Source: a virus
Taxonomy: Duplodnaviria > Caudoviricetes
IMG/VR virus record: IMGVR_UViG_3300026187_000075
Coordinates: 1-27,835 of that record
Length of the DNA stretch: 27,835 nt
Reading direction: 5' to 3' (one strand)
Below, piece by piece: positions 1-27,835 of this stretch (positions within the stretch are counted from its first letter, which is position 1; every line of letters starts with the position of its first letter). A program made the translations under genes and the position numbers. The notes under the pieces were generated by a model that made no database searches, was not told where the DNA came from, and worked only from the letters and a program-made list of their open reading frames with translations.

Positions 1-3000
1 TAAAATCTGCTTCATATATATCAATAAAATTACCTTCATATGTTTCAGAGAAATTACCCTCATAAGCATTTTCATAGATCGCAGTGAATTGTGCAACGTA
101 TTCGGTTACATAGTTTCCGGTATATTCATCGGCAAAGTTACCGACATATTGACCTTCGAATGTCTCTTCGAATGTCCCAGTATATTGACCCTCAAATGTT
201 TCTATAAAATCTCCAGAGTAGTCAACAGAGAAGTTGCCTGAATAATTGTCTGTGAAATCACCCAGATATTGTCCTTCGAATGTTTCTACAAAGTCTCCCT
301 CATAAACTTCCTCGAAGTTACCGATATAGTCTTCGGTAAAGTTGCCTTCATATTGTCCTTCAAAGTTTTGTTCAAAGTCCCCACTGTAATCTACAGAGAA
401 ATTACCCGAATATGTTTGTTGGAAATTACCCTCATATTGTCCTTCAAATGTTTCTAGGAAATCACCCGAATAGTCTGTCGAGAAGTTACCAGAGTAATCT
501 GCTGTAAAGTTACCCGAATACTGTCCTTCAAACGTTTCTAGGAAATCACCAGAGTAGTCGACAGAGAAATTACCTGAATAATTCTCAAGGAAATCACCAG
601 AATACTGCCCTTGGAATGTCTCCAAGAAGTCACCAGAGTATTGTCCCTCAAACGTTTCTACGAAGTTGCCAGAGTATGGAACAGAGAAGTTACCACTGTA
701 CTGTTCCTGAATATACAAAGAGATGTAATCCGTACCATACAACGAAATGTAATCGGTCGAATAATCTTCGGTAAAGTTACCAGAGTAGTCTTCGGTAAAC
801 GTACCAGTATACTGACCTTCAAAGATTGTTTCGAAGGTGCCTGTATACTGACCTTGGAAGGCCTGTTCAAAATCACCACTGTATTCTTCGATAAAGTTTC
901 CGGTGTAATCTTCACTGAAGGTACCTGTGTATTGACCTTCGAAGATTGTTTCGAATGTTCCGGTGTACTGCCCTTGGAATGTCTCCTCAAAGTCCCCACT
1001 GTAATTCACCGAGAAATTACCCGAATATGGAGTAGAGAAGTTACCTGAATATTGACCCTCAAAGTTTTCTTCGAAGTTACCCGTATATTGCCCTTGGAAG
1101 GTTTCTAGGAAATCACCACTGTAATCCAGTGAGAAATCACCCGAGTATTGTTCTTGTGTATACGTTACACTGAAGTTACCACTATATTGTTCTTGAGTAT
1201 ATGTGACACTGAAGTCACCCGAATAATCCTCTTGAATATATGTCTCTTCAAAATCACCAGAATAAGTTTCCTCGAAATCTCCGGAATAGTTTACACTGAA
1301 ATTACCAGAGTAAGGATCAATAAAGTCACCGGAATATTGTCCTTCGAAGTTCTGAACAAAGTTACCACTATATTGACCTTGGAACGTTTCTACAAAGTCA
1401 CCCTCATATGGAGATGAGAAGTTTCCGCTGTACGCAACCGTGAAATCACCAATGTATTGACCTTCAAAGTTTTGTTCAAAGGTGCCTGTATATTGACCTT
1501 GGAACGTTTCTACAAAGTCACCCTCATATGTTACGAGGAAGTTGCCTTCATATGCAACGGTGAAATCACCCAGATATTGTCCTTGGAAATTTTGTTCGAA
1601 ATCGCCAGAGTAGTTTACACTAAAGTTACCAGAGTAAGGAACAATAAAGTCACCGGAATATTGCCCTTGGAATGTTGATACAAAGTCACCCGAATAGTCT
1701 GTCGAGAAGTTACCTGAATAATTCTCAAGGAAATCACCAGAATATTGCCCTTGGAATGTTTGTTCAAAATCACCCGAGTAGTTTGTCGAGAAGTTGCCAG
1801 AGTAATCTTCGACGAAGTTACCTGTATACTGGCCTTCAAATGCCTGAATAAAATCGCCGTCATAGGTTTGTACAAAGTTACCAGAGTAAGGAACTACGAA
1901 ATCACCTGTGTACTGACCTTGGAACGTTTGTAGGAAATCGCCCGAATAGTCTGTCGAGAAGTTACCAGAGTAATCTTCGACGAAGTTACCTGTATACTGG
2001 CCTTCAAATGCCTGAATAAAATCACCGGAGTAATTTAAACTAAAGTTTCCACTGTATGGAACGATGAAATCACCTGTGTATTGTCCTTGGAAAGTCTGTA
2101 AGAAATCACCAGAGTAATTCAGGGAGAAGTTACCAGAGTAATTCTCAAGGAAATCACCAGAATATTGCCCTTGGAAGTTGATTAAAAAATCACCAGAGTA
2201 ATTTAATGAGAAATTACCTGAATAATTCTCAAGGAAATCACCGGAATACTGACCTTCAAAGGTCTGTTCGAAATCACCAGAGTAATTCAGACTAAAGTTG
2301 CCCGAGTAAGGAACAACGAAATCTCCTGTGTATTGTCCTTGGAAAGTAGAGAGAAAATCACCCGAGTAATTTACACTAAAGTTACCTGAATAGTCTACGA
2401 CGAAATCGCCTGTGTACTGACCTTGGAACGTTTGTAGGAAATCACCAGAGTAATTCAGACTAAAGTTGCCCGAGTAAGGAACAGAGAAGTCACCAACGTA
2501 CTGGCCTTGGAAGTTGGTTAAAAAATCACCAGAGTAATTTAAACTGAAGTTTCCACTGTATGGAACGATGAAATCACCTGTGTACTGCCCTTGGAATGTC
2601 TGTACAAAATTTCCTAGGTATTGACCTTCGAAAGTCTGTAAGAAATCACCAGAGTAGTTAACAGAGAAATTACCAGAGTAAGGATCAATAAAGTCACCTG
2701 CGTATTGTCCTTCAAAATTCTGGATAAAATCACCAGAGTAGTTAACAGAGAAATTGCCCGAGTAAAACTCTATGAAATTACCTGTATACTGTCCTTCGAA
2801 ATTTTGGACAAAATTACCCGAGTAATTTACACTAAAATTACCTTCGTATGTTTGTTGCAAATATTGAACACTGAAGTTACCAGAGTAATCGACAGAGAAA
2901 TTACCTGAATAATCTGTAATAAAATTACCCGAATAAAATAAACTAAAGTTACCCGTATATTGCCCTTGGAAGTTGGTTAAAAAATCACCAGAGTAATTTT

Positions 3001-4320
3001 GAATAAAATCACCCGAGTAATTAGCTTGAACATAATTAGAATCAAATGTGCCTAGGTAATTTGTTTCAAACGTACCAGAATAATTTACACTGAAGTTACC
3101 CGAGTAATCTTCTTGAGTATAGAATGTTTCAAATGTACCTGTATATGTTTGTTCAAAAGTACCGAGGTAGTTTACACTGAAGTTACCAGAATAATTTTCC
3201 TGTGCATAATTGTCTTCGAATGTACCCGTGTAATTTAATTCAAACGTCCCGAGGTAATTCGTTTGGAAATCACCTGTGTAAGTTTCTTGTGCGTATGTGA
3301 CACTAAAGTTACCCACGTAGTTTGTATCAAAGGTTCCCAGATAGTTGGTTTCAAAATTACCTGTGTAAGTTTCTTGGGCGTAATTGGTTGCAAAATTCCC
3401 AGCATAGTTTGTATCAAAGGTTCCCAGATAGTTGGTTTCAAAATTACCTGTGTAAGTTTCTTGGGCGTAATTGGTTGCAAAATTCCCAGCATAGTTTGTT
3501 TCAAACGTTCCCAGATAATTGGTCTGGAAATTACCTGTGTAAGTTTCTTGGGCGTAGGTAACACTAAAGTTACCCGCATAGTTTGTTGCGAATGTACCCG
3601 TATAGTTTACACTAAAGTTACCTGTATAGTTTTCTTGAACATACAGAGAATCAAATGTGCCTAGGTAATTTGTTTCAAACGTTCCCAGATAGTTGGTTTC
3701 AAAATTACCCGTATAGTTTTCTTGAGTGTAAGTTAAAGCGAAATTACCTGCATAGGTTAAAACAAAATCTCCAGAATAAGTTTGTTCGAAATTACCGATA
3801 TAATTGTTTTGCACATAAGTGACAGCGAAATTACCGATATAGTTTGTATTGAACGTTCCCAAATAGTTTAAACTAAAGTTACCAGTATAATCTGCTTGTA
3901 CATAGTTTTGTAAGAAGTCATTACTGAACTGTTGAGTAAATTGTGATGTAAAATCTTGTTCAAAATTACCCGTGTAGTTTTCTTGAGTATACGCTTGAAC
4001 AAATGTTCCCGAGTATGGTTGTGCAAAATTGCCAACGTATGTGGTTTCAAAATTACCTGTGTAGTTTTCTTGAGTGTAAGTTACAGCGAAATTACCTGTA
4101 TAAGTTGCACTAAAGTTACCGACATAACCTTGTATAAAGTTACCAGTATAGTTCGATTCGTTATAAGTTGCCGTAAAATCACTTGAAAACTGTTGTAAAA
4201 AAGTTCCGGTAAAATTAGTTTCAAACGTTCCCAAATAGTTTTGTGTAAAGGTGTTGGAAAACTGTGTTTCAAAATTACCTGTGTAGTTTTCTTGAGTGTA
4301 AGTTACAGCGAAATTACCTA
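1..4320 (-). repeat. C-terminal (return) arm of [Y/F]xxx tetrapeptide repeats, 12-nt base period with 84/87-nt super-period
   Basis: Translates to YSGNF/YSGDF/FQGQY/YxQENY units. Super-period is 87 nt in 3019-4150 and mostly 84 nt in 148-2788. Confidence 0.95.
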
Positions 4321-7300
4321 AATATGATGCAGTGAAGTTACCAATGAAGTTACCTGTATATTGCGCTGTTACCGGACCTTGATAGGTTACAGTAGAATCT
4401 GTACTGAAATTACCTGTATATTGTGTACCATATGCTATGGTAAAGACAGAAGTAAAGAAACCAGTAAAGTAAGCTGGAGGAACATATCGTGCAATAGAAT
4501 AATAACCACCACCGGCACCATCAGAAGCGAAGAAAGTCCCTCTATAATAAGTGTATCCATCAGTACCAGTTTGTGGTGATGAAGCTCCCGGCGGCACAGA
4601 GGCGCTTACAAAGAAAACCTGCGAACTATCCCAAAGACCTACAGAGCCTTGTACGAAACCACTATCAAGCCAATGGTACACGTTTTGTGTGTAAAGATAT
4701 CCAGAAAAGTTGCCGGGGTAACCATACTGTTGACTAAAGTTACCCGTATAAAATAATGTCGGGCCCGACTGATACTGTTGTGTGAAATCTCCAATAAAGT
4801 TACCAGTGTACCCCTGTTGCGTATTTCGTTCGTAGACTTGTGTAAAAGTACTAGTAAAACTCGAAGAGAAACCCACTGAAAAATTACCAACGTACTGCCC
4901 TTGGAAAGTAGATAGGAAAGTACCCAAATAGTTCTGTGTAAAACTATTAGAAAACTGTGTCTCGAACGTTCCTAGATAATTCGTCTGGAAATTACCAGTA
5001 TAAAATAAACTGAAGTTACCAGTATAATTAGCTTGGAATGTTTGTAAGAAATCACCATCAAAGTTTTGGGTAAAACCAGCAGAAGAGAAATTCTGTACAA
5101 AGTTACCAACGTATTGTCCTTGGAAGTTGGTTTCAAAATTACCCACGTAAGGTTGAGTAAATTGACTTGTAAAATCCTGTTCGAAGTTACCCGTATATTG
5201 TCCTTGGAAGGTACCAAGGAAAGTACCAGAATAATCAATAGAGAAATTACCAGTATAAAATAAACTGAAGTTACCAGTATATTGCCCTTGGAAAGTACTT
5301 AAAAAATCAGCTGAAAAATTAGTTTCGAACGTTCCCGCATATGTTTGTTGAAAGTTACCTAGATACTGCCCTTGGAATGTCTGTACGAAAGTACCAACGT
5401 AATTTACACTGAAATTGCCTGAATAGTTTTGAACGAAATCACCCGTGTACTGCCCTTGGAAAGTAGATAGGAAAGTGCCAGTGAAGTTAGTCTCAAATGT
5501 TCCCAGATAGTTTGTTTCAAACGTACCTGTGTATTGCCCTTGGAAATTGAGAGTGAAATCAGATGAAAATTGAGTTTCGAACGTTCCCGTATATGTTTCA
5601 ACAAAGTCACCAGAGTACTGACCCTCGAAGTTAGATAAAAACGTACCAGTGAAATTGGTCTCGAATGTTCCTGTGTACGTTTGAACGAAATCACCCAAAT
5701 ACTGCCCTTGGAAGTCCGATAAGAAAGTGCCAGTGAAGTTCGTTTCAAATGTTCCTGTATACGTTTGAACGAAATCACCCAAATACTGCCCTTGGAAGTC
5801 CGATAAGAAAGTGCCAGTGAAGTTCGTTTCAAATGTTCCTGTATATGTTTGTTGAAAGTTACCTTGATATTGACCTTCGAAATTTGATAAGAAAGTGCCA
5901 GTGAAGTTAGTCTCAAATGTTCCCAGATAGTTTGTTTCAAACGTACCAACATATTGCCCTTGGAAGTTTTGAACAAAGTCACCCGAATAATTTGTTTCGA
6001 AATCACCAGTGTAGCTTGTCTCAAATGTACCTAGGTACTGCCCTTGGAACGCTTGTACAAAGTCTCCACTATAATCTGTGTCAAACGAACCAGTGTAGTT
6101 CGTTTCAAACGTACCGACATATTGACCTTCGAAGTTTACACTGAAATTGCCTGAATAATTTACACTGAAGTTACCAGAATAATCTTCCTGCACATAGTTT
6201 TGTAGGAAATCATTTGAGAAATCCTGTTCAAAGTCACCAGAGTAATTTACAGAAAAATCACCAGAATAGTTAATCGAAACGGACTCTCCCATCCATCCAA
6301 ACAATGGTTCTTCGTCGTCAGTTGCATCATTGACAGTGACAAGGTAGACATCAGTACCTTCGAATTTCCATAGAGTATTTGAATTGAAGTTTGCCGCAGA
6401 TCCTGAATCTAATGCAATATCACCCGCAACACCAAAACCAGATGTTCCTTCACGGAAAAATACAGAAGGACTGGTCGCATTACCAGACGCATAGAAAGTT
6501 TCATGAAGAACCCAAGAAGATCCGTTCCAACTAGAAACCTGAACAGAACCACTATTGGGTACAACCAAATGGAAGTCTGACAGAACACCGGCGTGCATGT
6601 AGTGGGACGATAGATATTCCGTACCAACACCTTGACACGCATCACCACCCGCTCCATCCGCAATCTCTACAGCAACACAGGGGTTCGCATCAGCAACCCT
6701 GTATGTCGCATTTGTTGAAGGAGCCGCATTGTTTACAGATGATTCAACTCCATTTCGTCGACGATAAACCACGGTAGATGCCGGAGTCAACATCATATAG
6801 TCCGCACCAGACTGGATTGCACTCGCAACCATTTCTACGTCTGACTCGAAGAACACCCATGCGTTCAATGTTGAGGTAGAATAAGTCGCAACCGTTCCTG
6901 CGGTCAAACTTACTGTCGTGGTTGCTGTTCCACTAATACCACCCACAACATTGTCGTAGACAGTAACTGTACCGTTTTCCTTCGCATAGAAGTAGACGGT
7001 CATAGGTGCGTTACGGTTTGCGTAATTACCGAACAAAGTTCCTCTCATATTCCAAGGGATTGGTACGTGGTTAGCACCCCAGTCTTGAATATGGAAAGGT
7101 TTTCCGTTGGTAAATAGAATGTCACCTTGAGAAACAGAAATGGTTCCGGTTTGAGACGCAGCCGTTGAACCTACAACCGTTGTGACAGTGCCACCACTGT
7201 CTTTGTAAATAATGGTACCCGATTCGTAAATAGAATAATTTACGGTGGCGTTGGTCATTATGATGTATTCACCCAGACCACTATTTCGACGATAGTCTAT

Positions 7301-10300
7301 ACCAATATAGTCAGAAACAAAATCACCCGAATAAGTTTGTACAAAATCACCCGAGTATTGTTCTTGTACATAGTTTTGTAGGAAATCATTTGAAAAATCT
7401 TGTTCAAAGTCACCCGAATAATTTAGACTGAAGTTACCAGAATATTGTGACTGTGCGTAATTACTAACAAAATTACCATCATAAGTTTGTTCAAAATCGC
7501 CACTGTAATTTACGCTGAAGTTACCAGAATATTGTTCTTGGACGTAGTTCTGTACAAAATTACCCGTGTAGTTTTCTTGAGTATAAGTTTCGACAAAGTT
7601 ACCCGAGTAAGTTTGTTCAAAGTCACCGCTGTAGTTTACGCTGAAGTTACCACTGTAGTTTTCTTGAACATATGTTTCAACGAAATTACCTTCGTATGTT
7701 TGTTCAAAGTCGCCAGAGTAATTTACACTAAAGTTACCAGAGTAATCGTCCTGTACATAATTCTGGACGAAATTACCAGCATATGTTTCTTCGAAGTCAC
7801 CAGAGTAATTTACGCTGAAGTTACCAGAGTAATTGTCTTGGATATAAGTCGCAACAAAATTACCATCGTATGTTTGTTCAAAGTCACCACTATAGTTTAC
7901 GCTGAAATTACCAGAATATTGTTCTTGAGTATATGTGACACTAAAATTACCCGAGTATGTCTCTTCGAAGTCACCCGAATAATTTACACTAAAGTTACCA
8001 CTGTAGTTTTCTTGGATATAAGTTACACTGAAATTACCAGAGTATGTCTCTTCGAAATCACCAGAGTAATTTACACTAAAGTTACCAGAGTAATCATCCT
8101 GTACATAATTCTGAACAAAGTTACCAGAGTACGTCTCTTCAAAATCACCTGAATAGTTTACACTGAAATTACCGCTGTATGAATCTTGAACGTAGTTTTG
8201 TTCAAAATCACCAGAATATGTTTCTTCGAAGTCGCCCGAGTAATTTACACTAAAGTTACCACTGTAGTTCTCTTGAATATAATTCTGAACAAAGTTACCC
8301 GAGTATGTTTCCTCGAAGTCACCGGAATATGGTACAGAGAAATTACCACTGTAAGAATCTTGTACGTAGTTTTGTTCAAAATCACCCGAATAGGTTTCTT
8401 CGAAGTCACCCGAATAATTTAGACTGAAGTTACCAGAATAATCTTCTTGAGTGTATGTGACACTAAAGTTACCAGAATATGTTTCTTCGAAGTCACCAGA
8501 GTAATTTACACTAAAGTTACCACTGTAGTTTTCTTGAATGTATGTGGCACTAAAGTTACCGTCATAATTCTGTTCAAAGTCACCCGAATAATTTAGACTG
8601 AAGTTACCACTGTAGTTTTCTTGAACATAATTCTGTACGAAGTTGCCTTCATATGCAGTTAAAAAATCGCCCGAATATGGTTCAATGAAATTACCACTGT
8701 AGTTGTCTTGGGCATAATTCGTCTCAAATGTTCCGAGGTACTGTTCTTGCACATAGGTTGCAATGAAGTTGCCCTCATAGGTTTGTTCGAAGTCACCTTC
8801 ATATACAGTAACAAAATTACCACTATAATCTTCTTGAGTGTATGTTACAGAAAAATCACCCGAGTATTGTTCCTGCACATAATTTTCTACAAAGTTACCC
8901 GAGTATGTTTCCTCGAAGTCACCGGAATAGTCTATGCTAAAATTACCAGAATAATCTGTTAAGAAATTACCAGAGTATTGCCCTTGGAAGTTGGTTAGGA
9001 AATCTCCTGAATATTGTCCTTCAAACGTTTCTAGGAAATCACCCGAATATTGACCTTCGAAGGTCTGAACGAAATTACCCGAATAATTTACACTGAAATT
9101 ACCAGAGTAATCTTCTTGGGTGTACGTAGTCTCAAAGGTTCCTGAATATTGTTCCTGAACATACGTAGTTTCAAAATCACCAGAGTAATTTTCAATGAAG
9201 TCACCAGAATAATCCAGTGTGAAATTACCAGAATAATCTTCTTGAGTATAGACTGTCTCAAACGTACCAAGATATTGTTCCTGTACATAATTCAGTTCGA
9301 AGTCGCCCGAATAGGTCTCTTCAAAATCACCAGAATATGGAATACTGAAATTACCTGAATAATCTTCTTGAGTATAGACTGTCTCAAAGGTTCCTGAATA
9401 TTGATCTTGAAGATAGTTGGTCTCAAAATCACCCGAATAATTTACAGAGAAATCACCCGAGTAATTAATAGAGAAGTTGCCTTCATACCCTTCAGTGAAA
9501 TTACCTTCGTATTGACCTTCGAAAGTCTGTAAGAAATCACCCTCGTAGGTTACAACGAAATCGCCCGTATATTGTTCTTGAGTATAGGTGACACTGAAAT
9601 TACCCGAATAGTCGTTCTGAATATATGTGACACTAAAGTTACCAGAATATGTTTCTTCGAAGTCACCAGAGTAATTTGTTGAGAAGTTTCCTGAATATTG
9701 TTCCTGAACATATAAGGTGACATAATCTGTCGCATATGTCTCTTCGAAATCACCCGAATAGTTTACACTGAAATTGCCCGAGTATTGTTCCTGAACATAA
9801 GTCGAGACGTAATCTGTCAAATACCCTTCAATAAAATCTCCACTGTAGTCCAGTGAAAAATTACCTGAATATTGTTCTTGGACATACAACGAAACATAAT
9901 CAGTCGCATATGTCTCTTCGAAGTCACCAGAATACGAAACGGTAAAGTTACCCGAATATTGTTCCTGAACATACAATTCTTCGAAAACGGCACCATACGT
10001 CTCTTCGAAGTCACCCGAATAGTCTACACTAAAGTTACCAGAGTAATTGTCTTGGACATACGTAGTTTCGAAGGTACCCGTATACTGATCTTGAATATAC
10101 AATGATTCGTATTCTGATACATATGTTTCGACATAATCAGTGAGGTAACCCGAAACGTAATCAGAAATATATTGATCTCTCAAGTAGAAAGAAATATAAT
10201 CTGTACTGTAAGGAATAATATCAGTGTTCAAATACTGTACACTGAATATACCCGTGTATTCTTCTTGTATATAATTGGTAACGTATTCGGTCAGATAGTT

Positions 10301-11482
10301 ATCAACGAAGTTTCCAATATAGTCTGTTTCGTAGCTACCCGAATAGTTTTCAGTTACATAAGCGGATTCATATACAGATTCAAATTGTGCTCCAGAGTAT
10401 GCCGCTTCATAGGGTTCAGGTAAGCCAGGACCTGTATACGTTTCTTCAGCAACATAATCTGTTGCATATGGTTCAGCAACATATGGTGCAATAAAATCAC
10501 CAGAGTAAGATTGGGAATACTGCGCTTCGAAAATCTGTGTAAATGTACTTTCGTATTCTGAACTGTAAAGAGTAGAATAATTTCTAAAATAATCTCCGAT
10601 ATATTCTTCGGAGAAAACCTGTGAGTAGTCTCCTTCATACACATCCGAATACGTACCTTCGTAAGTTGCACCCAAATAAGTTTCACTATAAAACTCTTGA
10701 CCCGTATACCCCGGCTCGGTAACAAACGATAATCGAGTGTCAAGTGCGGTACCACGTGCTTCCCATGTGCCGGGGTCTGTTGGTGGACCTTGCAATGATG
10801 ATCGCAACTGGTAAGTACCAATACCAGAATTCATTGCGGTTACCTTCGCACGTTCACCCAATGTGTACTCGATCTCCGCATCGGTCATTTCTTTCAGACC
10901 AGCGAAGATCGCATTCTGACGATTGATTGCGATCGGTTTTACATTGTCAGGTTCCGTACCCGTTTGACGAATGTAGATGTTGTAGTTTGTTGCAGACCCA
11001 TCCGCACGAGTGTCAGTGAAAACGTTTGGTATGAATACAGTCCAGTCTGCACTGGGTGCGGTTTCACCCAATCGGAAACTGCCAGGAAGTTCATTTGCGG
11101 TTATTTTTTCGAGTAGTCTTTGAATGAGAGAATCGAGTTCCGAATCACTCATCTCTTTTAGACCCGCACCATTCCAGAAAACAGGGTTCTTTGTCAATGG
11201 TCCTTTTTCGGAAGGACCTACATTCTGATAAAGATCCGTTTCCGTGAAAGAATAGGTAGGTGGAATGTATGCATCAGGTGTGACACCAATGCCCTGATCA
11301 TAGAAAGTATCGGTATAAGTTCCGACAAGATTACCGCCCGCAGAAATAGTGAGTGCCGATGGGTCACTCTGACTCATTCTTGAAAGATGAATCCCTGCAC
11401 GGTATGCGAGATAATCTTCTTCGTTTAAGATTAACTCTTTTAACGCACCAGAACCAAGACTTTTTAACGGACGGTATGACAT
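1..11482 (-). CDS. Giant (>=3827 aa, 3'-truncated) aromatic-tetrapeptide repeat protein; putative virion fibre
   Basis: ATG at 11482-11480 gives MSYRPLKSLGSGALKEL... The same frame reads ...YEGNFSETYEGNFIDIYEADF at the left edge. No in-frame stop in the large stretches I translated, and the ORF track lists no closed ORF in this frame across 1-11482, as expected if it runs off the edge. TATAAATA lies 27 nt upstream. Located at the end of the baseplate cluster. Fibre function is inferred. Confidence 0.92.
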   Translation of the reverse strand, partial: MSYRPLKSLGSGALKELILNEEDYLAYRAGIHLSRMSQSDPSALTISAGGNLVGTYTDTFYDQGIGVTPDAYIPPTYSFTETDLYQNVGPSEKGPLTKNPVFWNGAGLKEMSDSELDSLIQRLLEKITANELPGSFRLGETAPSADWTVFIPNVFTDTRADGSATNYNIYIRQTGTEPDNVKPIAINRQNAIFAGLKEMTDAEIEYTLGERAKVTAMNSGIGTYQLRSSLQGPPTDPGTWEARGTALDTRLSFVTEPGYTGQEFYSETYLGATYEGTYSDVYEGDYSQVFSEEYIGDYFRNYSTLYSSEYESTFTQIFEAQYSQSYSGDFIAPYVAEPYATDYVAEETYTGPGLPEPYEAAYSGAQFESVYESAYVTENYSGSYETDYIGNFVDNYLTEYVTNYIQEEYTGIFSVQYLNTDIIPYSTDYISFYLRDQYISDYVSGYLTDYVETYVSEYESLYIQDQYTGTFETTYVQDNYSGNFSVDYSGDFEETYGAVFEELYVQEQYSGNFTVSYSGDFEETYATDYVSLYVQEQYSGNFSLDYSGDFIEGYLTDYVSTYVQEQYSGNFSVNYSGDFEETYATDYVTLYVQEQYSGNFSTNYSGDFEETYSGNFSVTYIQNDYSGNFSVTYTQEQYTGDFVVTYEGDFLQTFEGQYEGNFTEGYEGNFSINYSGDFSVNYSGDFETNYLQDQYSGTFETVYTQEDYSGNFSIPYSGDFEETYSGDFELNYVQEQYLGTFETVYTQEDYSGNFTLDYSGDFIENYSGDFETTYVQEQYSGTFETTYTQEDYSGNFSVNYSGNFVQTFEGQYSGDFLETFEGQYSGDFLTNFQGQYSGNFLTDYSGNFSIDYSGDFEETYSGNFVENYVQEQYSGDFSVTYTQEDYSGNFVTVYEGDFEQTYEGNFIATYVQEQYLGTFETNYAQDNYSGNFIEPYSGDFLTAYEGNFVQNYVQENYSGNFSLNYSGDFEQNYDGNFSATYIQENYSGNFSVNYSGDFEETYSGNFSVTYTQEDYSGNFSLNYSGDFEETYSGDFEQNYVQDSYSGNFSVPYSGDFEETYSGNFVQNYIQENYSGNFSVNYSGDFEETYSGDFEQNYVQDSYSGNFSVNYSGDFEETYSGNFVQNYVQDDYSGNFSVNYSGDFEETYSGNFSVTYIQENYSGNFSVNYSGDFEETYSGNFSVTYTQEQYSGNFSVNYSGDFEQTYDGNFVATYIQDNYSGNFSVNYSGDFEETYAGNFVQNYVQDDYSGNFSVNYSGDFEQTYEGNFVETYVQENYSGNFSVNYSGDFEQTYSGNFVETYTQENYTGNFVQNYVQEQYSGNFSVNYSGDFEQTYDGNFVSNYAQSQYSGNFSLNYSGDFEQDFSNDFLQNYVQEQYSGDFVQTYSGDFVSDYIGIDYRRNSGLGEYIIMTNATVNYSIYESGTIIYKDSGGTVTTVVGSTAASQTGTISVSQGDILFTNGKPFHIQDWGANHVPIPWNMRGTLFGNYANRNAPMTVYFYAKENGTVTVYDNVVGGISGTATTTVSLTAGTVATYSTSTLNAWVFFESDVEMVASAIQSGADYMMLTPASTVVYRRRNGVESSVNNAAPSTNATYRVADANPCVAVEIADGAGGDACQGVGTEYLSSHYMHAGVLSDFHLVVPNSGSVQVSSWNGSSWVLHETFYASGNATSPSVFFREGTSGFGVAGDIALDSGSAANFNSNTLWKFEGTDVYLVTVNDATDDEEPLFGWMGESVSINYSGDFSVNYSGDFEQDFSNDFLQNYVQEDYSGNFSVNYSGNFSVNFEGQYVGTFETNYTGSFDTDYSGDFVQAFQGQYLGTFETSYTGDFETNYSGDFVQNFQGQYVGTFETNYLGTFETNFTGTFLSNFEGQYQGNFQQTYTGTFETNFTGTFLSDFQGQYLGDFVQTYTGTFETNFTGTFLSDFQGQYLGDFVQTYTGTFETNFTGTFLSNFEGQYSGDFVETYTGTFETQFSSDFTLNFQGQYTGTFETNYLGTFETNFTGTFLSTFQGQYTGDFVQNYSGNFSVNYVGTFVQTFQGQYLGNFQQTYAGTFETNFSADFLSTFQGQYTGNFSLFYTGNFSIDYSGTFLGTFQGQYTGNFEQDFTSQFTQPYVGNFETNFQGQYVGNFVQNFSSAGFTQNFDGDFLQTFQANYTGNFSLFYTGNFQTNYLGTFETQFSNSFTQNYLGTFLSTFQGQYVGNFSVGFSSSFTSTFTQVYERNTQQGYTGNFIGDFTQQYQSGPTLFYTGNFSQQYGYPGNFSGYLYTQNVYHWLDSGFVQGSVGLWDSSQVFFVSASVPPGASSPQTGTDGYTYYRGTFFASDGAGGGYYSIARYVPPAYFTGFFTSVFTIAYGTQYTGNFSTDSTVTYQGPVTAQYTGNFIGNFTASYLGNFAVTYTQENYTGNFETQFSNTFTQNYLGTFETNFTGTFLQQFSSDFTATYNESNYTGNFIQGYVGNFSATYTGNFAVTYTQENYTGNFETTYVGNFAQPYSGTFVQAYTQENYTGNFEQDFTSQFTQQFSNDFLQNYVQADYTGNFSLNYLGTFNTNYIGNFAVTYVQNNYIGNFEQTYSGDFVLTYAGNFALTYTQENYTGNFETNYLGTFETNYLGTFDSLYVQENYTGNFSVNYTGTFATNYAGNFSVTYAQETYTGNFQTNYLGTFETNYAGNFATNYAQETYTGNFETNYLGTFDTNYAGNFATNYAQETYTGNFETNYLGTFDTNYVGNFSVTYAQETYTGDFQTNYLGTFELNYTGTFEDNYAQENYSGNFSVNYLGTFEQTYTGTFETFYTQEDYSGNFSVNYSGTFETNYLGTFDSNYVQANYSGDFIQNYSGDFLTNFQGQYTGNFSLFYSGNFITDYSGNFSVDYSGNFSVQYLQQTYEGNFSVNYSGNFVQNFEGQYTGNFIEFYSGNFSVNYSGDFIQNFEGQYAGDFIDPYSGNFSVNYSGDFLQTFEGQYLGNFVQTFQGQYTGDFIVPYSGNFSLNYSGDFLTNFQGQYVGDFSVPYSGNFSLNYSGDFLQTFQGQYTGDFVVDYSGNFSVNYSGDFLSTFQGQYTGDFVVPYSGNFSLNYSGDFEQTFEGQYSGDFLENYSGNFSLNYSGDFLINFQGQYSGDFLENYSGNFSLNYSGDFLQTFQGQYTGDFIVPYSGNFSLNYSGDFIQAFEGQYTGNFVEDYSGNFSTDYSGDFLQTFQGQYTGDFVVPYSGNFVQTYDGDFIQAFEGQYTGNFVEDYSGNFSTNYSGDFEQTFQGQYSGDFLENYSGNFSTDYSGDFVSTFQGQYSGDFIVPYSGNFSVNYSGDFEQNFQGQYLGDFTVAYEGNFLVTYEGDFVETFQGQYTGTFEQNFEGQYIGDFTVAYSGNFSSPYEGDFVETFQGQYSGNFVQNFEGQYSGDFIDPYSGNFSVNYSGDFEETYSGDFEETYIQEDYSGDFSVTYTQEQYSGNFSVTYTQEQYSGDFSLDYSGDFLETFQGQYTGNFEENFEGQYSGNFSTPYSGNFSVNYSGDFEETFQGQYTGTFETIFEGQYTGTFSEDYTGNFIEEYSGDFEQAFQGQYTGTFETIFEGQYTGTFTEDYSGNFTEDYSTDYISLYGTDYISLYIQEQYSGNFSVPYSGNFVETFEGQYSGDFLETFQGQYSGDFLENYSGNFSVDYSGDFLETFEGQYSGNFTADYSGNFSTDYSGDFLETFEGQYEGNFQQTYSGNFSVDYSGDFEQNFEGQYEGNFTEDYIGNFEEVYEGDFVETFEGQYLGDFTDNYSGNFSVDYSGDFIETFEGQYTGTFEETFEGQYVGNFADEYTGNYVTEYVAQFTAIYENAYEGNFSETYEGNFIDIYEADF
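3318..3499. repeat. Exact tandem duplication, 87 bp x 2 (+8 bp)
   Basis: 3318-3404 is identical to 3405-3491 by direct comparison. Confidence 0.95.
4760..6270 (-). repeat. Inner outgoing arm of tetrapeptide repeats, 84-nt (28-aa) super-period
   Basis: F[Q/E]GQY units at 6121, 6037, 5953, 5869, 5785, 5701, 5617, 5533, 5449, 5365, 5281, 5197, 5113, exactly 84 nt apart. Confidence 0.95.
5676..5845. repeat. Exact tandem duplication, 84 bp x 2
   Basis: 5676-5759 is identical to 5760-5843 by direct comparison. Confidence 0.95.
7300..10710 (-). repeat. Outer outgoing arm of tetrapeptide repeats, mostly 87-nt (29-aa) super-period, becoming irregular above ~10100
   Basis: YxQExY units at 7357, 7444, 7531, 7570, 7657, 7744 ... 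10045, 10084. Consensus approximately YxQENYSGNFSVNYSGDFEETYSGNFxxN. Confidence 0.95.
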
Positions 11483-11507
11483 CTACTGCTCTTTAAAATC
11501 ATTTTTA

Positions 11508-17083: not shown

Positions 17084-18415
17084 TTATTCCAGTTCTATTA
17101 CTATTCGAATGTCTTCGGTTTGATTGCTTGCACGTTGAATGCCATCAACGTTATTTATGTACAATATTTCACCCGAATAACGATCAAATTCAGGATTACC
17201 CAATGATTGTATTTCAGCGGTTGCACCAGAAGTACTCTGAACAACCTCTCCATTTAAGAATTCACCAAACCCTGTTGAATCGTTTTGGAAATAATATAAT
17301 TTCGTACCGTCTTGATAGAACACCTTACCGAAAGCTGTAAGTGACGTGTTATTGAAATCTTCGTCATTAACAAAAGATCCACTGATATTTGCAATGTTTA
17401 GGTAGTTCATTGCATTTGCAGTGTTCACTGTAAGATCTGAATCCCCATTGTATTTTTTCAGGTTACGGAATAGAGAAACAGTTTTGAATTCGTTCTGCGC
17501 AAGGATCGTATTGTTTTCGTTGTTTTCGAAATCAACCTGCATCATGACCGACTTCGCAAACAATGTATTGACAGGATCTTTATTTAAACCACCTCTTGGT
17601 GCAATTATTGGTCGTAATACCGCATTACCATAAGATGGTTCAACCTTTGCGAAATCGTATCCCGTCCCGTGCAGTCGATTTCCTTCACCATCCGAATCGA
17701 TTTCTACTCGAACTATTCTTCCGTTGTAAACAGTCGCATTATATACAGCAGAAGATCCGTTTCCTTGTATTGAAATACTTGGGTTTACAGAATATCCTGT
17801 TCCACCCGAGTCGATTGCGATTCCAATGATCTCACCAGAGATCGCAGAGTCCTGTAAAGTTTTCTGTCCGACTTCAGAAAGAATGGTCGGTGTCCCAGTG
17901 ATAAATTTTACGGGCATATACGAATTGTTTTTGAAATTCGAAAACGCAATGTTTGACATAGTGTATAGGTATCTCCAAAGATACCCATCACTCGTTTTAA
18001 ACGTGTTTATAAGTTTGCCCGTAATAAGAGAAGTGGAAGGTTCTACAGTGGAAAGGATCTCCACTCCCTGATTGGTCTTCGCAGTCTGTATGCAAACAAA
18101 AACTTCTCGGTTTTGATTCAATACGTAAAAATTAGTCAACGAACTGTTGTTGTCATCCCAAGCATTATAAACAGTGTTTGCTTGCCATTCAACCGTTGGA
18201 ACAACCATTGACGCTTGATTCGCAACCTTGATTGATTGTAATTCATGACGAACAACCATTTCTTTTCGTCGAGTGTCACTTAAAACATTCGAAATATCGT
18301 TGTCAAGTGATCTACCGATACCAACGTAATAAGTAGAACCGCCAGAATCAATATCTGACAACCAAAGGTTGCCCAATAATTTTTTATAATCTGGTGTAAT
18401 CGTTGATGTTGACAT
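17084..18415 (-). CDS. gp8: Baseplate wedge subunit gp8-like (443 aa)
   Basis: YYVGIGR, FYVLNQNREVFVC, STVEP, TSDGYLWRYLYT, and C-terminal YSGEILYINN...RASNQTEDIRIVIE. Confidence 0.85.
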   Translation of the reverse strand: MSTSTITPDYKKLLGNLWLSDIDSGGSTYYVGIGRSLDNDISNVLSDTRRKEMVVRHELQSIKVANQASMVVPTVEWQANTVYNAWDDNNSSLTNFYVLNQNREVFVCIQTAKTNQGVEILSTVEPSTSLITGKLINTFKTSDGYLWRYLYTMSNIAFSNFKNNSYMPVKFITGTPTILSEVGQKTLQDSAISGEIIGIAIDSGGTGYSVNPSISIQGNGSSAVYNATVYNGRIVRVEIDSDGEGNRLHGTGYDFAKVEPSYGNAVLRPIIAPRGGLNKDPVNTLFAKSVMMQVDFENNENNTILAQNEFKTVSLFRNLKKYNGDSDLTVNTANAMNYLNIANISGSFVNDEDFNNTSLTAFGKVFYQDGTKLYYFQNDSTGFGEFLNGEVVQSTSGATAEIQSLGNPEFDRYSGEILYINNVDGIQRASNQTEDIRIVIELE

Positions 18416-18442
18416 ACTATTTCTCTTAAATTACTATTTGTT

Positions 18443-18450
18443 TATTTATA
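18443..18450 (-). promoter_or_regulatory. T4-type late promoter TATAAATA upstream of gp8
   Basis: Exact consensus overlapping the gp6 stop codon, 28 nt above the gp8 ATG. Confidence 0.75.
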
Positions 18451-20245
18451 CGGTGTTCGTGACAACAGCACGTGTAGTCGATGCATTCGGATCATAATTA
18501 AGAATGTTGTTCCTCAACGGATTTATTGTTGCTTGGTTTGCTGGAATCGCAACAATTTTGATATACTCTCCCGTGATGATCGAAGGAGAAAAACCGGAAA
18601 GATATAACACACCCGTTGTTATATCGTAGTAACCAACGTTATCAACTTCCGAAGATGCGGTCTTGGTATTGAACACTTCGATAATGTTCGAACCCAATCG
18701 GTTTCGAAGTTTGCAAACCTTTCCATTTAAAAAGAAAGTGTCGGAGTTGATGATAAAAATATCGTCTTCGGGTGCAGCAATTGATGTGGGGAACGTTATG
18801 GTATATGAACTCACACCAGATCTTGGAACCAAACGATATTGCATCTTGATGTCTGCACGACTCGAAAGGATTGACGGATCGGTGTCATCTATCTGTGTCA
18901 ATAAATTCGATCGACGAAACGATTGGTCAAAAGAACCCAGATTGGCATCGAAAAATGATTTCATAGTATTTTTAACAGTTGATTCGATACTGGTTTTACT
19001 TTGCGAAGTAAGATTCTGGTTCCACTGAAAAACAGTCGAGATTTCCAAAAAGGTATTGACCGGATCTACGAACTGAACGTCAAACGATGCGACAGACAAA
19101 TCTCTTGCAAGCGCAACGATGTCGTTTTTGGTTTTTCCTTGAATGGACGTATCATCTGTGTCAAAGTCGATTGACACAAACACCGAACCATATTGAGGTG
19201 GTAAATTATCTTCACCACCCCATGATTTAATATCATTAATAACACCCGAAAAATTCCTCAAGATCAATGCAGAGTAATCTTCTGCTGTTACCATTCTGTT
19301 TTGTGTTGCATAAAGGTAAGGTGCATTCTTTCGAATGGATTCCAGTTCTTCTTTCTCCGAACCACCAATTGCAATTGCAACGGTTGATATTTTTACTTCT
19401 TTACCGTCAAGGGTGGAATCAGGTGAAAATGTTTTCGCACCATTTGATTCCGAACCCGCAACTCTGTCATATGAAATAACGATCTTATTTCCAGGCTGGG
19501 GTGAGTTACCGAGTCGTCCACTATTTCCCAAACCATTTGCAAAGGTCACTTCATAGAAACCGTTGGGTGTCTCTTTGATCGAAAAAATCTTCGAAGTAGA
19601 TTGAATACTGGTTGCGTTATTGATATTGATATAATTGTCGAAACTGTTCGAGGATACATTATCGTATACTCTAACCGTGATTGTGTCCAGATCCAAATTA
19701 GTTACTGGTATGACATACGTTTCGTTTTCGGATGCAGGTCCTGCAATGAAGGTCTTGGTTGCTTGTATACCTTCGTAAATTGCAACGTTGATGTTTCCAT
19801 CCAGTGCAAAGTAATAACGATCCGAACCGTCATTGACCGCAGTCAGGTTCTCTCGTGTTTTGAAAGTGTATGAGACATTGTCGACCGTAGTGGAAAACGT
19901 GAAACCCGCAGGCATCGTGATCGTTGAAGGATTGCTGTTGTCGTTGACATACATGTTAACAACAGCATAAGATGCTTTTTTCGATCCTACAGTATAACCC
20001 AAACTACCCGCAAGAGCAACCAGAGAAGAACGCAATTGTGCAGTCGAGAGGTATGACTCGTTCAATGCAAAGTTTGCGATCAATCCATTGTAATGTGTGT
20101 TATATGCTAATACATCCAACAGATTAGAAATACCAGAAGCTTCGAAATTGTAATCGGCAAATTCTGGTTTTTGTGCCAAAAACAATTTCAAGTTGTTCTT
20201 GATGGTATCAAAATCTAATTCTGTAGATTTAATTGTTGTTGTCAT
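18446..20245 (-). CDS. gp6: Baseplate wedge subunit gp6 (599 aa)
   Basis: ELDFDTIKNNLK.FL..EF.DYNFEASG..LLDVLAYNTHYN..ANF..NESYL.TAQLRSS; SIRKNAP..YATQNRMVTAEDY; WGGEDN.PPQYG.VF. GGAGA ribosome-binding site at 20252-20256. Confidence 0.93.
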   Translation of the reverse strand: MTTTIKSTELDFDTIKNNLKLFLAQKPEFADYNFEASGISNLLDVLAYNTHYNGLIANFALNESYLSTAQLRSSLVALAGSLGYTVGSKKASYAVVNMYVNDNSNPSTITMPAGFTFSTTVDNVSYTFKTRENLTAVNDGSDRYYFALDGNINVAIYEGIQATKTFIAGPASENETYVIPVTNLDLDTITVRVYDNVSSNSFDNYININNATSIQSTSKIFSIKETPNGFYEVTFANGLGNSGRLGNSPQPGNKIVISYDRVAGSESNGAKTFSPDSTLDGKEVKISTVAIAIGGSEKEELESIRKNAPYLYATQNRMVTAEDYSALILRNFSGVINDIKSWGGEDNLPPQYGSVFVSIDFDTDDTSIQGKTKNDIVALARDLSVASFDVQFVDPVNTFLEISTVFQWNQNLTSQSKTSIESTVKNTMKSFFDANLGSFDQSFRRSNLLTQIDDTDPSILSSRADIKMQYRLVPRSGVSSYTITFPTSIAAPEDDIFIINSDTFFLNGKVCKLRNRLGSNIIEVFNTKTASSEVDNVGYYDITTGVLYLSGFSPSIITGEYIKIVAIPANQATINPLRNNILNYDPNASTTRAVVTNTV

Positions 20246-20261
20246 TTATGTTCTCCAGCGT

Positions 20262-20909
20262 CTATAACAACTGATTGTTTCCGGTTTGAGTTAATATTGG
20301 TTCACCCGCTTGAGTCAACAATCCGATGAGTGCGATATCTATTCCGATCAGATCTCCACCCAGTGTCAACAATCTGTTTGAATCTTCACTCAACAAGATT
20401 TCATCGAAGATCGGATCTGGCGTAACAGGTGGTACAAATGCAATGGTGCCAATTTGTTCTGTGACACCGACACGCAACACATCAACAAATCCAGTTTGTA
20501 CAACTCTAAACTCTATTATGACCGAAAGATAATTGTAGTCAGGTGATGCGACTACCTTTAAACCAGTGATCTTTGCTCTAGGTTCATATCTTTCGATTGC
20601 AATTTTTATATCGTCTATGATTTGATCGGAAGTGCTAGCATCCATCAAATCAAACAATCTATTACCTAAATTACCACCAAACTTTGGACGGTAAGGTTTC
20701 TCGTGGTGATTGGTCAACAACAGATTCTTTATGGATTGTTTAACCGCAGCGGCATCCAGTTTCTTAAGAATGTCACCATCACCATTTAAAAAACCAAACT
20801 CGTCTGTTCTTGCAGACAGAGTAAGATCAATATCAGAATACTTTCGTGTCTTGACGACACGAATATTCGATGATAAATTTCCGTCTTCTGGTGAAAAAAC
20901 TTTAGGCAT
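20262..20909 (-). CDS. gp25: Baseplate wedge / sheath-initiator gp25 with C-terminal extension (215 aa)
   Basis: YSDIDL, AVKQSIKNLLLTN..EKPYRPKFGGNL..LFD, AIERYEPRA. Confidence 0.9.
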   Translation of the reverse strand: MPKVFSPEDGNLSSNIRVVKTRKYSDIDLTLSARTDEFGFLNGDGDILKKLDAAAVKQSIKNLLLTNHHEKPYRPKFGGNLGNRLFDLMDASTSDQIIDDIKIAIERYEPRAKITGLKVVASPDYNYLSVIIEFRVVQTGFVDVLRVGVTEQIGTIAFVPPVTPDPIFDEILLSEDSNRLLTLGGDLIGIDIALIGLLTQAGEPILTQTGNNQLL

Positions 20910-20927
20910 TGTAAAACCTTTTCTTTT

Positions 20928-20935
20928 TATTTATA
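20928..20935 (-). promoter_or_regulatory. T4-type late promoter TATAAATA upstream of gp25
   Basis: Exact consensus in the 29-nt intergenic gap, 19 nt above the gp25 ATG. Confidence 0.8.
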
Positions 20936-20938
20936 TCA

Positions 20939-21673
20939 TTAATCTGGAAGTATTTCTAACAGTTCGTTCTTTGCTTGAAGTTCACCGTTATAAATTGTTT
21001 CCAAATCATATTTGTAAGAAACATCGAAGGACGAAGGAACTTCGGGCATCTCTAGAAATATTGTACTTGTCAGTTGACCTGATGGATCAAATGTGTCATA
21101 ATATAATGTAATCTTATCATAATTGATATAATCTTTCCAATAGACCGCAAGGTCAAATGCCATACGTGGATCTGATTTACCAAACTTATCGACCACTTGA
21201 TAACCGATCGTTCGTCCTTCTCTTCTTAAGTCATTAATACTGTCCGAACTGGGGGATTCACCCACATACTGCGGAATCCTCGCAACCCACCCATCCGGTC
21301 CTTTACCATATGAAGCATTCGGTATTCTTTGTGTGACCAACTTTGCGGCAAGTTCACTTCCCTGTTTTGATTCCGTGACCTGAAACTTTGGATTGGGTTC
21401 GTATATTCCATCCGACACAGTCAAACGGTGTTGTGCGAATAACGGGTTTGAATAGAACACCTGCATTGCGTGTGAGTGAGGAACAAGGTTACGTGCGATC
21501 TGATTTCGATTTGCGGAACCCGAGAACCCCTTCGAATACAATTTTTCGAATTGGGTCCTAGAACCCAACGCACCCAAAAACTTTGCACACGTAATCCCCG
21601 GCCCTAATTGTGTCGAAGACGTGATTCTCCCTTGCAAATCAGGATTGTATTTTGGTTCAACTAATATAATCAT
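20939..21673 (-). CDS. Hypothetical baseplate-hub-associated protein (244 aa), possibly a degenerate peptidase M15-like fold
   Basis: ATGA-coupled to the gp5 beta-helix gene. The layout (TQLGPGIT.AKF ... NL ... LTVSDG.Y ... GRTIGY ... YDKITLYY) loosely follows M15 domains found at gp5 C-termini, but Zn ligands are not evident. The ORF is solid; the function is weak. Confidence 0.6.
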   Translation of the reverse strand: MIILVEPKYNPDLQGRITSSTQLGPGITCAKFLGALGSRTQFEKLYSKGFSGSANRNQIARNLVPHSHAMQVFYSNPLFAQHRLTVSDGIYEPNPKFQVTESKQGSELAAKLVTQRIPNASYGKGPDGWVARIPQYVGESPSSDSINDLRREGRTIGYQVVDKFGKSDPRMAFDLAVYWKDYINYDKITLYYDTFDPSGQLTSTIFLEMPEVPSSFDVSYKYDLETIYNGELQAKNELLEILPD

Positions 21674-23133
21674 TTACTCACCTTGAATCGTTTACTTCGA
21701 TTGTCCGCTGGATTGTTACCCAACAACGTAGAACCGAATCGTATCGTACCTTTTTTACTTGCGGTTCTTCCGATATTTGCACCGATGTTTTTCTTGAAGT
21801 CTTTGTTAAGTTTACCCTGACTCACAAGATAACTAGTGAACGTATTATTGTCGAAGTTCGCAGGATCACGTAATTTAGAACGTATTTCATGAATGGTTGG
21901 GTCGTGATTAAACAATCCATCGTACTCGTCAGACTTACTGATCTTATCTTTGAGTTTGGGATCAACTGATACGTTACGAATACCGTAACTACTTGACGAC
22001 AGTTGCAATTCCACAATCGCAGGATTAGGAACCGGAGCAGTCGGAGGTAACGGTATGAATGGCATAACGCCAGGGACTGGTGGTGTTATTACAGGTGGTG
22101 GACCCGCACCCAGAGATGCAGCAGTCACTGCGGTAGTCGCTGCACCTGCACCAACCGCAAATCCCGCTTGACCAGAGATCGAAGAATAATCAGAACGAAT
22201 TGCTTCCGCAGCCTTACCTATCAAAGTTCCATAGAACGTAGAAAGATTTGTAAGTCCCGCAGGGAAACCACCGTATGTTTTACCATAGTGATCAATTAAT
22301 GGACCACCGATCGTACCTTTGTGACCGATCATTGACACATGACGTGCAGTAATGTTTGCGGTCGATGCCGCAGCAACCCATTCGTTTACCGCAGTTGTCA
22401 CCAAATTCTGACCTGTCAATATCTCGGTGTTACCCTGAACCAGTTGTTTCATATCACCCGCAACAATCAGGTTCATGTCTTCGAGACACGTACTGGTTGC
22501 CATTCCAATGACCTGTTCACCCCGTGCGCCTCGAATCGTGTAGTTCTGATCACGATTTACTGTCTTGGTGTGTCTACCCTTGATTTCTTCGATTCGATCG
22601 CCCCCAACATTGACGTTATAATTACCGCCAACATCAAGATTGAAATCCCCGTCAACACGTAAAGTAAGATTGCCTTTGTAAACAAGATTTCCTTCTCCTT
22701 CTACAATGACTTTGGAACTACCACCTACCACTTCCACACGTTGATTTTTAGAAGAGATAACAACACTACCGTCAGCACGCATTTCCACACCAGAACCCGT
22801 TCGGTGTTTAATCAGAATGCGTTCAGCGCCGGGGGTGTCATCCATTTCAAATGAATGTCCCGATGGAGTTTCTGTCACTTGGTTGAACGGAAACACCGAA
22901 GGTTTCTGATCTTCAAGATCGAGGGGCACATCGAGTTCACCACCACCTATCGACAGGTTGTTAACCTCTTCACCCTTTGCTGCTTTGTTTATACTACTAG
23001 AATAATAATAATCTCGTCGGGGGAACTCCCCGTTTGGATCGACAAACCCATCTGTAGGAACTCCATCCGTTTCTTCTACACCTTCTCCCAAAGCATAAAG
23101 TCGAGAGAAGTAATTGTCAACATTGGTTGTCAT
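21670..23133 (-). CDS. gp5: gp5 C-terminal module: baseplate puncturing needle (triple beta-helix) protein (487 aa)
   Basis: DPNGEFP, FPFNQVTETPSGHSFEMDDTPGAERI..HRTGS..EM..DGS, followed by 8-residue VxGxxxxx repeats (VEGEGNLVYKGNLTLRVDGDFNLDVGGNYNVNVGGD). Confidence 0.85.
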   Translation of the reverse strand: MTTNVDNYFSRLYALGEGVEETDGVPTDGFVDPNGEFPRRDYYYSSSINKAAKGEEVNNLSIGGGELDVPLDLEDQKPSVFPFNQVTETPSGHSFEMDDTPGAERILIKHRTGSGVEMRADGSVVISSKNQRVEVVGGSSKVIVEGEGNLVYKGNLTLRVDGDFNLDVGGNYNVNVGGDRIEEIKGRHTKTVNRDQNYTIRGARGEQVIGMATSTCLEDMNLIVAGDMKQLVQGNTEILTGQNLVTTAVNEWVAAASTANITARHVSMIGHKGTIGGPLIDHYGKTYGGFPAGLTNLSTFYGTLIGKAAEAIRSDYSSISGQAGFAVGAGAATTAVTAASLGAGPPPVITPPVPGVMPFIPLPPTAPVPNPAIVELQLSSSSYGIRNVSVDPKLKDKISKSDEYDGLFNHDPTIHEIRSKLRDPANFDNNTFTSYLVSQGKLNKDFKKNIGANIGRTASKKGTIRFGSTLLGNNPADNRSKRFKVSK

Positions 23134-27296: not shown

Positions 27297-27835
27297 TAAC
27301 TACTCGCTATCAACTCTTTGATTCTACCAACGAATTGTTCGATATACGCCTTTTTGATAATTCGTATTCTTTTAGACTTTTCGTTTTCGTTTATCAGGTA
27401 CTCTAGGTTTGTGACTGGAACCTTGGTGGTGTCCGTAGAGAAAAAGAAATCAATCCATAGGTCCGAATCATTCACATAATGATGAACACCTTCGTATTCG
27501 TAAACAACGTTGGTAAGGGGCGTGTTACTTGTCAATGGGTTAGTGGTCGGAGTCGAGTAACTCATTGATATGTTTTGACGAATGTCCGAGTCCGCAGATA
27601 TTACAATCTCACCTACTTCTAGGTCTTTTGCAACAACAATACCTTCGATACCGTTGATTAACACAGATGCATTGACAGGATACAAGTCCGCATATTGTGC
27701 AACCTCACCCGCACTATCTACATCCAATTTAGCAACATAATATGGGTAATAATCTCCGACGACTCTTTCGTATAAATTGTTGAGTGACATGGGCCACCCA
27801 GTCTCTTTTAACAATGGATTCATCAAGAAAAAGGT
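27296..27835 (-). CDS. gp53: Baseplate wedge gp53 (5'-truncated)
   Basis: The frame stays open to the right edge (...TFFLMNP...GWPMS), so the track's start at 27826 is probably internal. C-terminal HHY...VTNLEYLINENEKSKRIRIIK..YIEQFV is characteristic. Confidence 0.82.
   Translation of the reverse strand, partial: TFFLMNPLLKETGWPMSLNNLYERVVGDYYPYYVAKLDVDSAGEVAQYADLYPVNASVLINGIEGIVVAKDLEVGEIVISADSDIRQNISMSYSTPTTNPLTSNTPLTNVVYEYEGVHHYVNDSDLWIDFFFSTDTTKVPVTNLEYLINENEKSKRIRIIKKAYIEQFVGRIKELIASS

Follow-up and report, generated by a model that had tools for sequence, protein, structure and literature searches.

What does a phage encode in a frame of more than 11 kb that is built mostly of short repeats, and is such a frame a gene at all? 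The question is raised by the left part of IMG/VR record IMGVR_UViG_3300026187_000075 (Duplodnaviria; Caudoviricetes), of which positions 1 to 27,835 constitute the window, that is, the whole stretch of 27,835 nucleotides analysed here. A first-pass annotation, made from the letters and a list of open reading frames, had described a minus-strand frame that is open from position 11482 to beyond the left edge over at least 3827 codons, is invisible to the ORF track, turns the listed short ORFs into shadows and specifies an aromatic residue at every fourth position. Translation of 2..11482 indeed yielded 3,827 residues with zero stops, running off the left window edge, and the gene is missed solely where open-ended frames go unlisted. 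The other five frames contain 32 ORFs of at least 60 residues, which is the level expected from codon shuffling (mean 30.9, range 24-37 in 60 shuffles). Aromatic residues follow one another at a distance of exactly four in 686 of 853 gaps, compared to a mean of 89 and a maximum of 119 in 500 shuffled sequences, and two stretches of 963 and 1,495 residues are free of lysine and arginine, leaving almost no tryptic sites, as had been pointed out.

Several assemblies speak for the integrity of this frame. An independent one (L002) is 99.8% identical to the window across 18.1 kb, its frame being open throughout the 8,147 bases of the giant gene that it contains. The leftward extension that had been suggested as a check was provided by overlapping contigs (L025, 99.7% identical; L026/L029, 99.3%), which cross the left edge, add 188 codons and then reach a TGA, giving a total of 4,015 residues. 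One octapeptide occurs in 23 copies with 20 different DNA spellings, which speaks for old repeats and against an assembly loop. A single discrepancy concerns L029, which stems from the same virus and is devoid of one 87-base 29-mer copy of arm C (window 3413-3499) that is present in the window and in L002, with no loss in arm B. This difference may be an assembly collapse or a real unmatched variant; a collapse is possible because the missing copy lies within a 95-base exact repeat, where an assembler may merge copies, and among the contigs of four runs no listed piece spanned the difference. Of words sampled from window positions 1-3000, 71-93% were recovered in seven public runs from five studies, labelled as estuary or soil metagenomes, with no RNA run among the listed runs matching this region. 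We conclude that the gene is real and that its product probably has a fibre architecture without a described family.

Table 1. Features of the window; residue ranges (aa x-y) refer to the giant protein.
Feature	Positions	Strand	Remarks
Giant repeat gene	2..11482	minus	codons 1-3,827 of 4,015; remaining 188 past left edge
Base domain, aa 1-261	10700..11482	minus	three internal repeats; third completed by C-terminal strand (predicted)
Outgoing arm A, aa 262-1395	7298..10699	minus	mainly 29-mers, six tetrads plus five-residue YxQEx
Side domain, aa 1396-1738	6269..7297	minus	all-β mobile module
Outgoing arm B, aa 1739-2256	4715..6268	minus	28-mers with FxGQ units
Tip domain at mirror axis, aa 2257-2338	4469..4714	minus	family match absent
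Returning arm C, aa 2339-2878	2849..4468	minus	29-mers; mirrors arm B
Returning arm D, aa 2879-3827 and on	2..2848	minus	28-mers with FxGQ; mirrors arm A
Youngest arm B duplication, aa 1880-1935	5678..5845	minus	86 identical bases, lag 84
Youngest arm C duplication, aa 2662-2721	3320..3499	minus	95 identical bases, lag 87
TATAAATA, T4-type late promoter consensus	11509-11516	minus	26 bases 5' of ATG
70-aa ORF, next after DUF4815 gene	11508-11720
DUF4815 / PHROG 358 protein, 1,787 aa	11717..17080	minus	Pfam and PHROG matches
T4-like baseplate genes	17084..27835	minus	gp8-like, gp6, gp25, gp5 pieces, PHROG 350 tail protein, PHROG 232 wedge

The repeats, which make up about 82% of the residues of the giant protein, are not a simple array: they form two mirror-image arms about a central tip, on a three-repeat base, and the chain ends, after arm D, in a C-terminal strand conserved in the family. 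Each 29-mer carries one five-residue unit (YxQEx) and each 28-mer one FxGQ unit. When arm A is reversed and compared with arm D, 237 unit pairs fall into register, with a five-residue unit opposite all 34 FxGQ units of D and all four of A; conversely, 34 of the 35 five-residue units of arm A are used opposite FxGQ of arm D. This register scores 38, the next one 24 and the best parallel one 18, while shuffling the unit spacing 5,000 times gave a mean of 13.7 and a maximum of 23. Gly-bearing tetrads of the YxG type never stand opposite one another (0/237 A/D pairs). We propose a pairing code in which FxGQ lies opposite a five-residue bulge and Gly tetrads lie opposite non-Gly tetrads. In arms B and C, all 15 FxGQ units are opposite five-residue units, and as the next register scores 13, this pair of arms alone discriminates weakly. 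An ungapped register scan found the mirror axis in none of seven windows of the giant protein, a failure that is explained by the five-residue units, which shift the register, and mutual information gave no decision on whether aromatic-aromatic or aromatic-Gly residues are directly opposite. The symmetry also made a prediction: the full length derived from it, set before the left extension was found, was 3,990-4,000 residues, compared to the 4,015 of the extended gene, in which the first FEGQ past the left window edge pairs with the five-residue unit at 404-408. The mirrored arms were the main point absent from the first-pass interpretation.

Two domains interrupt this pattern. The side domain, for which an all-β model was obtained (pLDDT 71), shares 30-44% identity with segments of five other proteins, and three of these contain LamG lectin-like domains. 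It gave zero Pfam matches at E 1 and a weak match to the IgGFc-binding N-terminal domain PF17517 (Atlas feature score 0.82, with the family on 11% of members). The tip domain matched nothing among phage records or fetched relatives, and profiles of the side domain, of the family and of two neighbouring enzymes found zero matches among PDB sequences.

How such arms could fold was approached through a short relative of 322 residues (P0051), which AlphaFold2 predicts with a pLDDT of 92.4 and a pTM of 0.80 (102 rows). In the model, three helices and short strands make up a base, from which two unbroken strands (236-272 and 275-320) extend as one long hairpin, the chain end returning to the base. 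Profile comparison relates the base repeats to each other with probabilities of 94, 98 and 99.5%, and the C-terminal strand to nothing but the final strand of repeat 2, at a weak 38%; taken together, these comparisons suggest that the giant hairpin is an expanded loop of repeat 3. By analogy with this 322-residue relative, whose tetrad mix is different, the arms of the giant protein likely form one giant antiparallel β-hairpin. Short natural members of about 310 residues bring the determination of a structure within reach. As an extended β strand spans 0.30-0.33 nm a residue, the approximately 1,650 residues of each strand would reach about 0.5 µm if extended, and coiling would shorten this value. 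The arms are strongly acidic: across their 3,134 residues, 427 Asp/Glu contrast with 3 Lys/Arg. A lone two-stranded ribbon of this length and charge is hard to picture as stiff; bundling or cations may be needed.

If each unit has a partner in the distant arm, one can ask how the gene changes its length. The two longest exact internal DNA repeats, one in arm B and one in arm C, occupy mirror positions, and the likeness of adjacent copies in one arm tracks that in the mirror arm (Spearman 0.71, over 58 overlapping and hence non-independent windows). Length might change by tandem duplication in one arm, which would become fixed once a matching duplication arises in the other. A strict lock-step of the arms is opposed by L029, with its one 87-base copy fewer in C and its unchanged arm B.

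The giant protein belongs to a large family. With the base domain as query, 382 clusters were retrieved at a 50% identity level; among the 150 best, lengths run from 244 to 4,046 residues, many of these proteins being partial. Family members range from about 300 to 4,000 residues, more than tenfold. A search with a short member retrieved 587 proteins of 203-648 residues among 8,000 scored; of the 120 short ones listed, 118 are complete at both ends and 88 have just one tip motif. In these 88 (the 30 with none or several motifs being excluded), with arms of 19-143 residues, the two arms are equal within 8 residues in 79 and within 3 in 74. Among long relatives, L005 (2,080 residues) obeys the same pairing code, with 21 matches in one register, 16 in the next, 10 in parallel and 5 exceptions, and in L021 (2,838 residues) five of six windows, each with more than 1,100 registers, point to one axis, centred on the sole insert; the ungapped scan gave an inconsistent axis in C48C1, L009b and L013b. 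By a crude mask, which left out 19 of 119 complete proteins with a missing arm start, the middle position (0.45-0.55 of arm length) was occupied by the insert in just 13 of the 26 longer relatives with a single one, and by one of the inserts in 39 of 58 relatives with several. Arm charge varies across relatives from -0.17 to +0.10 a residue, that is, from strongly acidic to basic, implying that the aromatic pattern, and not the charge, is the constant feature.

The suggestion of an unnamed repeat class has held up, with zero matches in Pfam, NCBIfam and PDB sequences. Pfam assigns no family to the giant protein or to the base, inserts and short relatives, PHROGs match none of the latter three, an Atlas search with a short relative gave 30 matches, all unnamed, and a description of the family was not found in the open-access literature. 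Among 50,697 phage records, the sole match is CDS0201 of phage C48C1 (OQ984149), an uncharacterised protein of 3,347 residues that is annotated as hypothetical and for which no paper was found in the open-access literature. It shares with the giant protein the base (41.5% identity), the C-terminal strand and three downstream genes, but has arginine-rich instead of acidic arms and five side inserts in the returning arm. The contribution of the present gene to this family is to be one of the longest members seen, with a confirmed length prediction and a dated mirror-duplication pair.

The relatives display further variations. In C48C1 (L001 21012-31055), a stretch of about 75 residues, judged by eye, occurs twice in succession, perhaps as an assembly duplication. 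One virus group (L009-L017, about 7345-13520) has two tandem family paralogues of about 830-870 and 875-1,183 residues. The closest relatives (L003 9959-, L005 6032-, P0003, P0004) contain an extra domain of about 150 residues within the first base repeat, at the loop equivalent to the giant-hairpin loop, and P0004 has more domains past the C-terminal strand, while its arms contain repeats rich in TNPT. In L021 (7118-9976) and L022 (7136-9976), the family gene is immediately preceded, on its upstream side, by a second aromatic-repeat frame of about 950 residues, with a C-terminus that differs from that of the family gene.

The giant gene lies between the baseplate and neck genes of a T4-like phage, among tail fibre genes, a place that in T4 is occupied by fibre-attachment, short-fibre and whisker genes. 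That it has its own late promoter, as claimed before, is consistent with the presence of TATAAATA, which we take to be the T4 late promoter consensus, 26 bases ahead of its ATG; elsewhere in the window this sequence has two copies only, ahead of the gp8-like and gp25-like genes. The 1,787-residue DUF4815 protein is presumably VrlC-like. Further upstream, the gp5 hub is split (window 20939-25938) into an OB plus lysozyme-like protein (297 residues), an amidase-bearing protein of 642 residues and a β-helix protein of 487 residues, and the stretch ends with a 244-residue ORF without a family. On the 3' side of the giant gene, an overlapping contig shows genes of 155, 244 and 223 residues, followed by tail-fibre-like, neck and sheath-stabiliser genes. 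Gene position and late promoter together suggest that the giant protein is a virion fibre.

These three downstream genes are a constant companion of the family. In all 17 related loci whose DNA continues past the last family gene, the next gene encodes 143-177 residues, and a DxD protein and a WHxN protein then follow in all 15 loci reaching further; several of these loci are copies of one virus, and nine distinct sets were aligned. The present virus has the same three genes after its giant gene. In Pfam searches, the DxD protein resembled the glycosyltransferase families GT2 in three of nine members and Nucleotid_trans in two of nine, weakly, the best E value of 2e-4 falling short of the cut-offs. 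An ExbD match of this protein in five of nine members was taken as chance. The WHxN protein we take to be 2-oxoglutarate/Fe oxygenase-like, a label that rests on its motif pattern, as oxygenase matches were absent from all nine members. From this linkage, the conserved neighbours may modify or chaperone the fibre, and the enzymes among them point to modified, possibly glycosylated, fibres. In L023 (12880-16500) and L024 (12994-19258), more glycosyltransferase-like and other enzyme genes occur beyond the three conserved neighbours. In L028 (3027-3536), a fibre-like protein of 170 residues just before the neck genes is a candidate docking partner; its end resembles those of the fibres encoded ahead of the family gene in L023 and L024, a shared motif that was derived from those same sequences and is in this sense circular.

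Based on these observations, we consider it probable that the late gene of this T4-like phage encodes a 4,015-residue protein with mirrored arms, which forms a giant antiparallel hairpin on a base and serves as a host-catching virion fibre with tip and side domains. The chain would be made late, fold back at the tip and zip, with β-bulges at the five-residue units, across from FxGQ. Along one face, aromatic side chains would cover the glycines, in the manner of cross-strand aromatic-Gly packing, or pack on one another, and the last strand would close the base. There would be one chain per fibre, its pseudo-threefold base docked on a trimeric virion protein, as gp38 caps gp37, with the tip and side domains binding the host and the neighbouring glycosyltransferase-like and oxygenase-like proteins modifying the fibre. 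More tentatively, and with about as much doubt as conviction on our side, the family could constitute a new fibrous class: a self-zipping single chain with a readable pairing code and matched duplications 2.3 kb apart, forming a base-docked, half-micrometre tentacle several phage sizes long that has a dedicated chaperone, glycosyltransferase and oxygenase.

The mirror data would fit equally well if three chains bundled their hairpins into a six-stranded needle with an aromatic core, similar to the gp37 tip, or if the arms paired between chains. An aromatic residue at every fourth position wants burial, and a six-stranded antiparallel needle is a known fibre form (PMC7291167). We nevertheless regard this arrangement as unlikely, given that the three base repeats suit one chain on a threefold axis, that the single-chain model is confident and that the arms contain neither His nor HxH. 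Returning to the single-chain hairpin, its role need not be adhesion: it could act in assembly as a ruler or scaffold, or as a drag or spacing filament with non-binding inserts, as might fit a tip without a family match and a length that varies more than tenfold in the family. We judge such a role decidedly improbable, as variable domains are inserted at the tip and along the arms, and the side domain recurs in LamG lectin-like proteins; for a ruler of a fixed part, moreover, one would not expect lengths between 300 and 4,000 residues within gene blocks that are otherwise alike.

Very little remains of the idea that the arm repeats are gp5 octapeptides in variant form and wind into a parallel triple-stranded β-helix, an idea that we consider largely refuted. 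The first-pass annotation had found no known fibre repeat, and this holds for collagen (0 runs of four Gly-X-Y), for the pentapeptide repeat (0 A[DN]LxxA motifs) and for gp37, but not for the gp5 octapeptide, as PHROG 430 (gp5) matches the giant protein with an E value of 7.6e-44 in 8 stretches. The part of the profile involved is the one also matched by the gp5 β-helix of the window itself, and the match reflects glycine spacing alone: 211 of 356 arm glycine gaps are 8, but 57 are 4 and 45 are 13, departing from the strict octapeptide period of gp5. Two residues before G-N/D/T/S, the giant protein has Tyr 279 times and Val 3 times, whereas this position is Val in 6 of 11 cases in the window's own gp5, and the Pfam families Gp5_C and Gp5_trimer_C, both found in the latter, are absent from the giant protein. 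A parallel, one-way path would explain neither the mirror symmetry (38 antiparallel versus 18 parallel) nor the C-terminal strand returning to the base, and the model of the short relative folds back. Least of all do we credit that faulty assembly or DNA inversion produced the long frame or its symmetry. Repeats can misassemble, and one assembly shows an 87-base difference; against this, four further contigs are in agreement at 99.3-99.8%, the octapeptide with its many spellings contradicts a loop, relatives of other lengths share the design, and both arms read forward as protein, with the unit order alone reversed.

If the preferred reading of a single-chain hairpin is true, fibrous proteins would gain a new architecture, a monomeric ribbon of thousands of residues that folds back on itself, in a family that is found widely among uncultured aquatic T4-like phages but has no name. 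This reading would raise two testable questions: by what means marine and estuarine phages enlarge the radius of capture in dilute water, and what allows a gene to change its length when each insertion needs a distant mirror match, a process of which the youngest pair is still visible here.

To our knowledge, the phage fibres described so far are trimeric and gain their length from parallel repeats. The C-terminal β-helix of T4 gp5 is parallel and three-start, with three chains and strict octapeptides (PMC3004832). The giant protein shares with it a Gly followed by Asn/Asp, often at each eighth residue, and differs in its mixed spacing of 4, 8 and 13, in Tyr replacing Val and in its mirror arms. 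Another system to compare is the gp37 needle, a homotrimer with about 100 residues a strand or less and iron bound on HxH motifs. In T4, this tip needle is six-stranded and antiparallel and lies between the collar and the receptor-binding domain (PMC7291167). Out-and-back antiparallel strands and a distal head are common to the gp37 and lambda Stf needles and the giant protein, for which they are predicted from the sequence mirror and the model of the short relative. Its approximately 1,650 residues a strand, aromatic tetrads and three-repeat base set it apart, and, as the arms lack His altogether and HxH occurs nowhere in the protein, the metal motif of gp37 is absent, as is any sequence match. 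The base recalls yet another system, gp38 of the T2/S16 type (PDB 6F45), which is a single chain with a pseudo-threefold attachment part that caps a trimeric fibre, and with loops along the fibre axis that bear the variable binding part (PMC6851490). By analogy, the three-repeat base suggests a shared capping logic, although searches of Pfam, PHROG and PDB relate neither the base nor short relatives to gp38 in sequence or fold; gp38 has a polyglycine sandwich and attaches through three tryptophan-bearing helices, whereas the giant protein is without glycine runs. The best fold match of the short relative's model is to the MABP / β-prism domain (MVB12B, MACPF-associated), with a Z score of 6.0, an rmsd of 3.6-3.7 and 112-118 residues aligned; 3tow follows with a Z of 5.7 and perforin-2 P2 with 4.9. 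Identity is 8-9%, and Z scores under 8 may reflect just a common arrangement, so that this likeness is a lead only. The MABP fold is a three-sided prism, to which the P2 domain adds a hairpin extension, and the base of the short relative contains three helices in addition.
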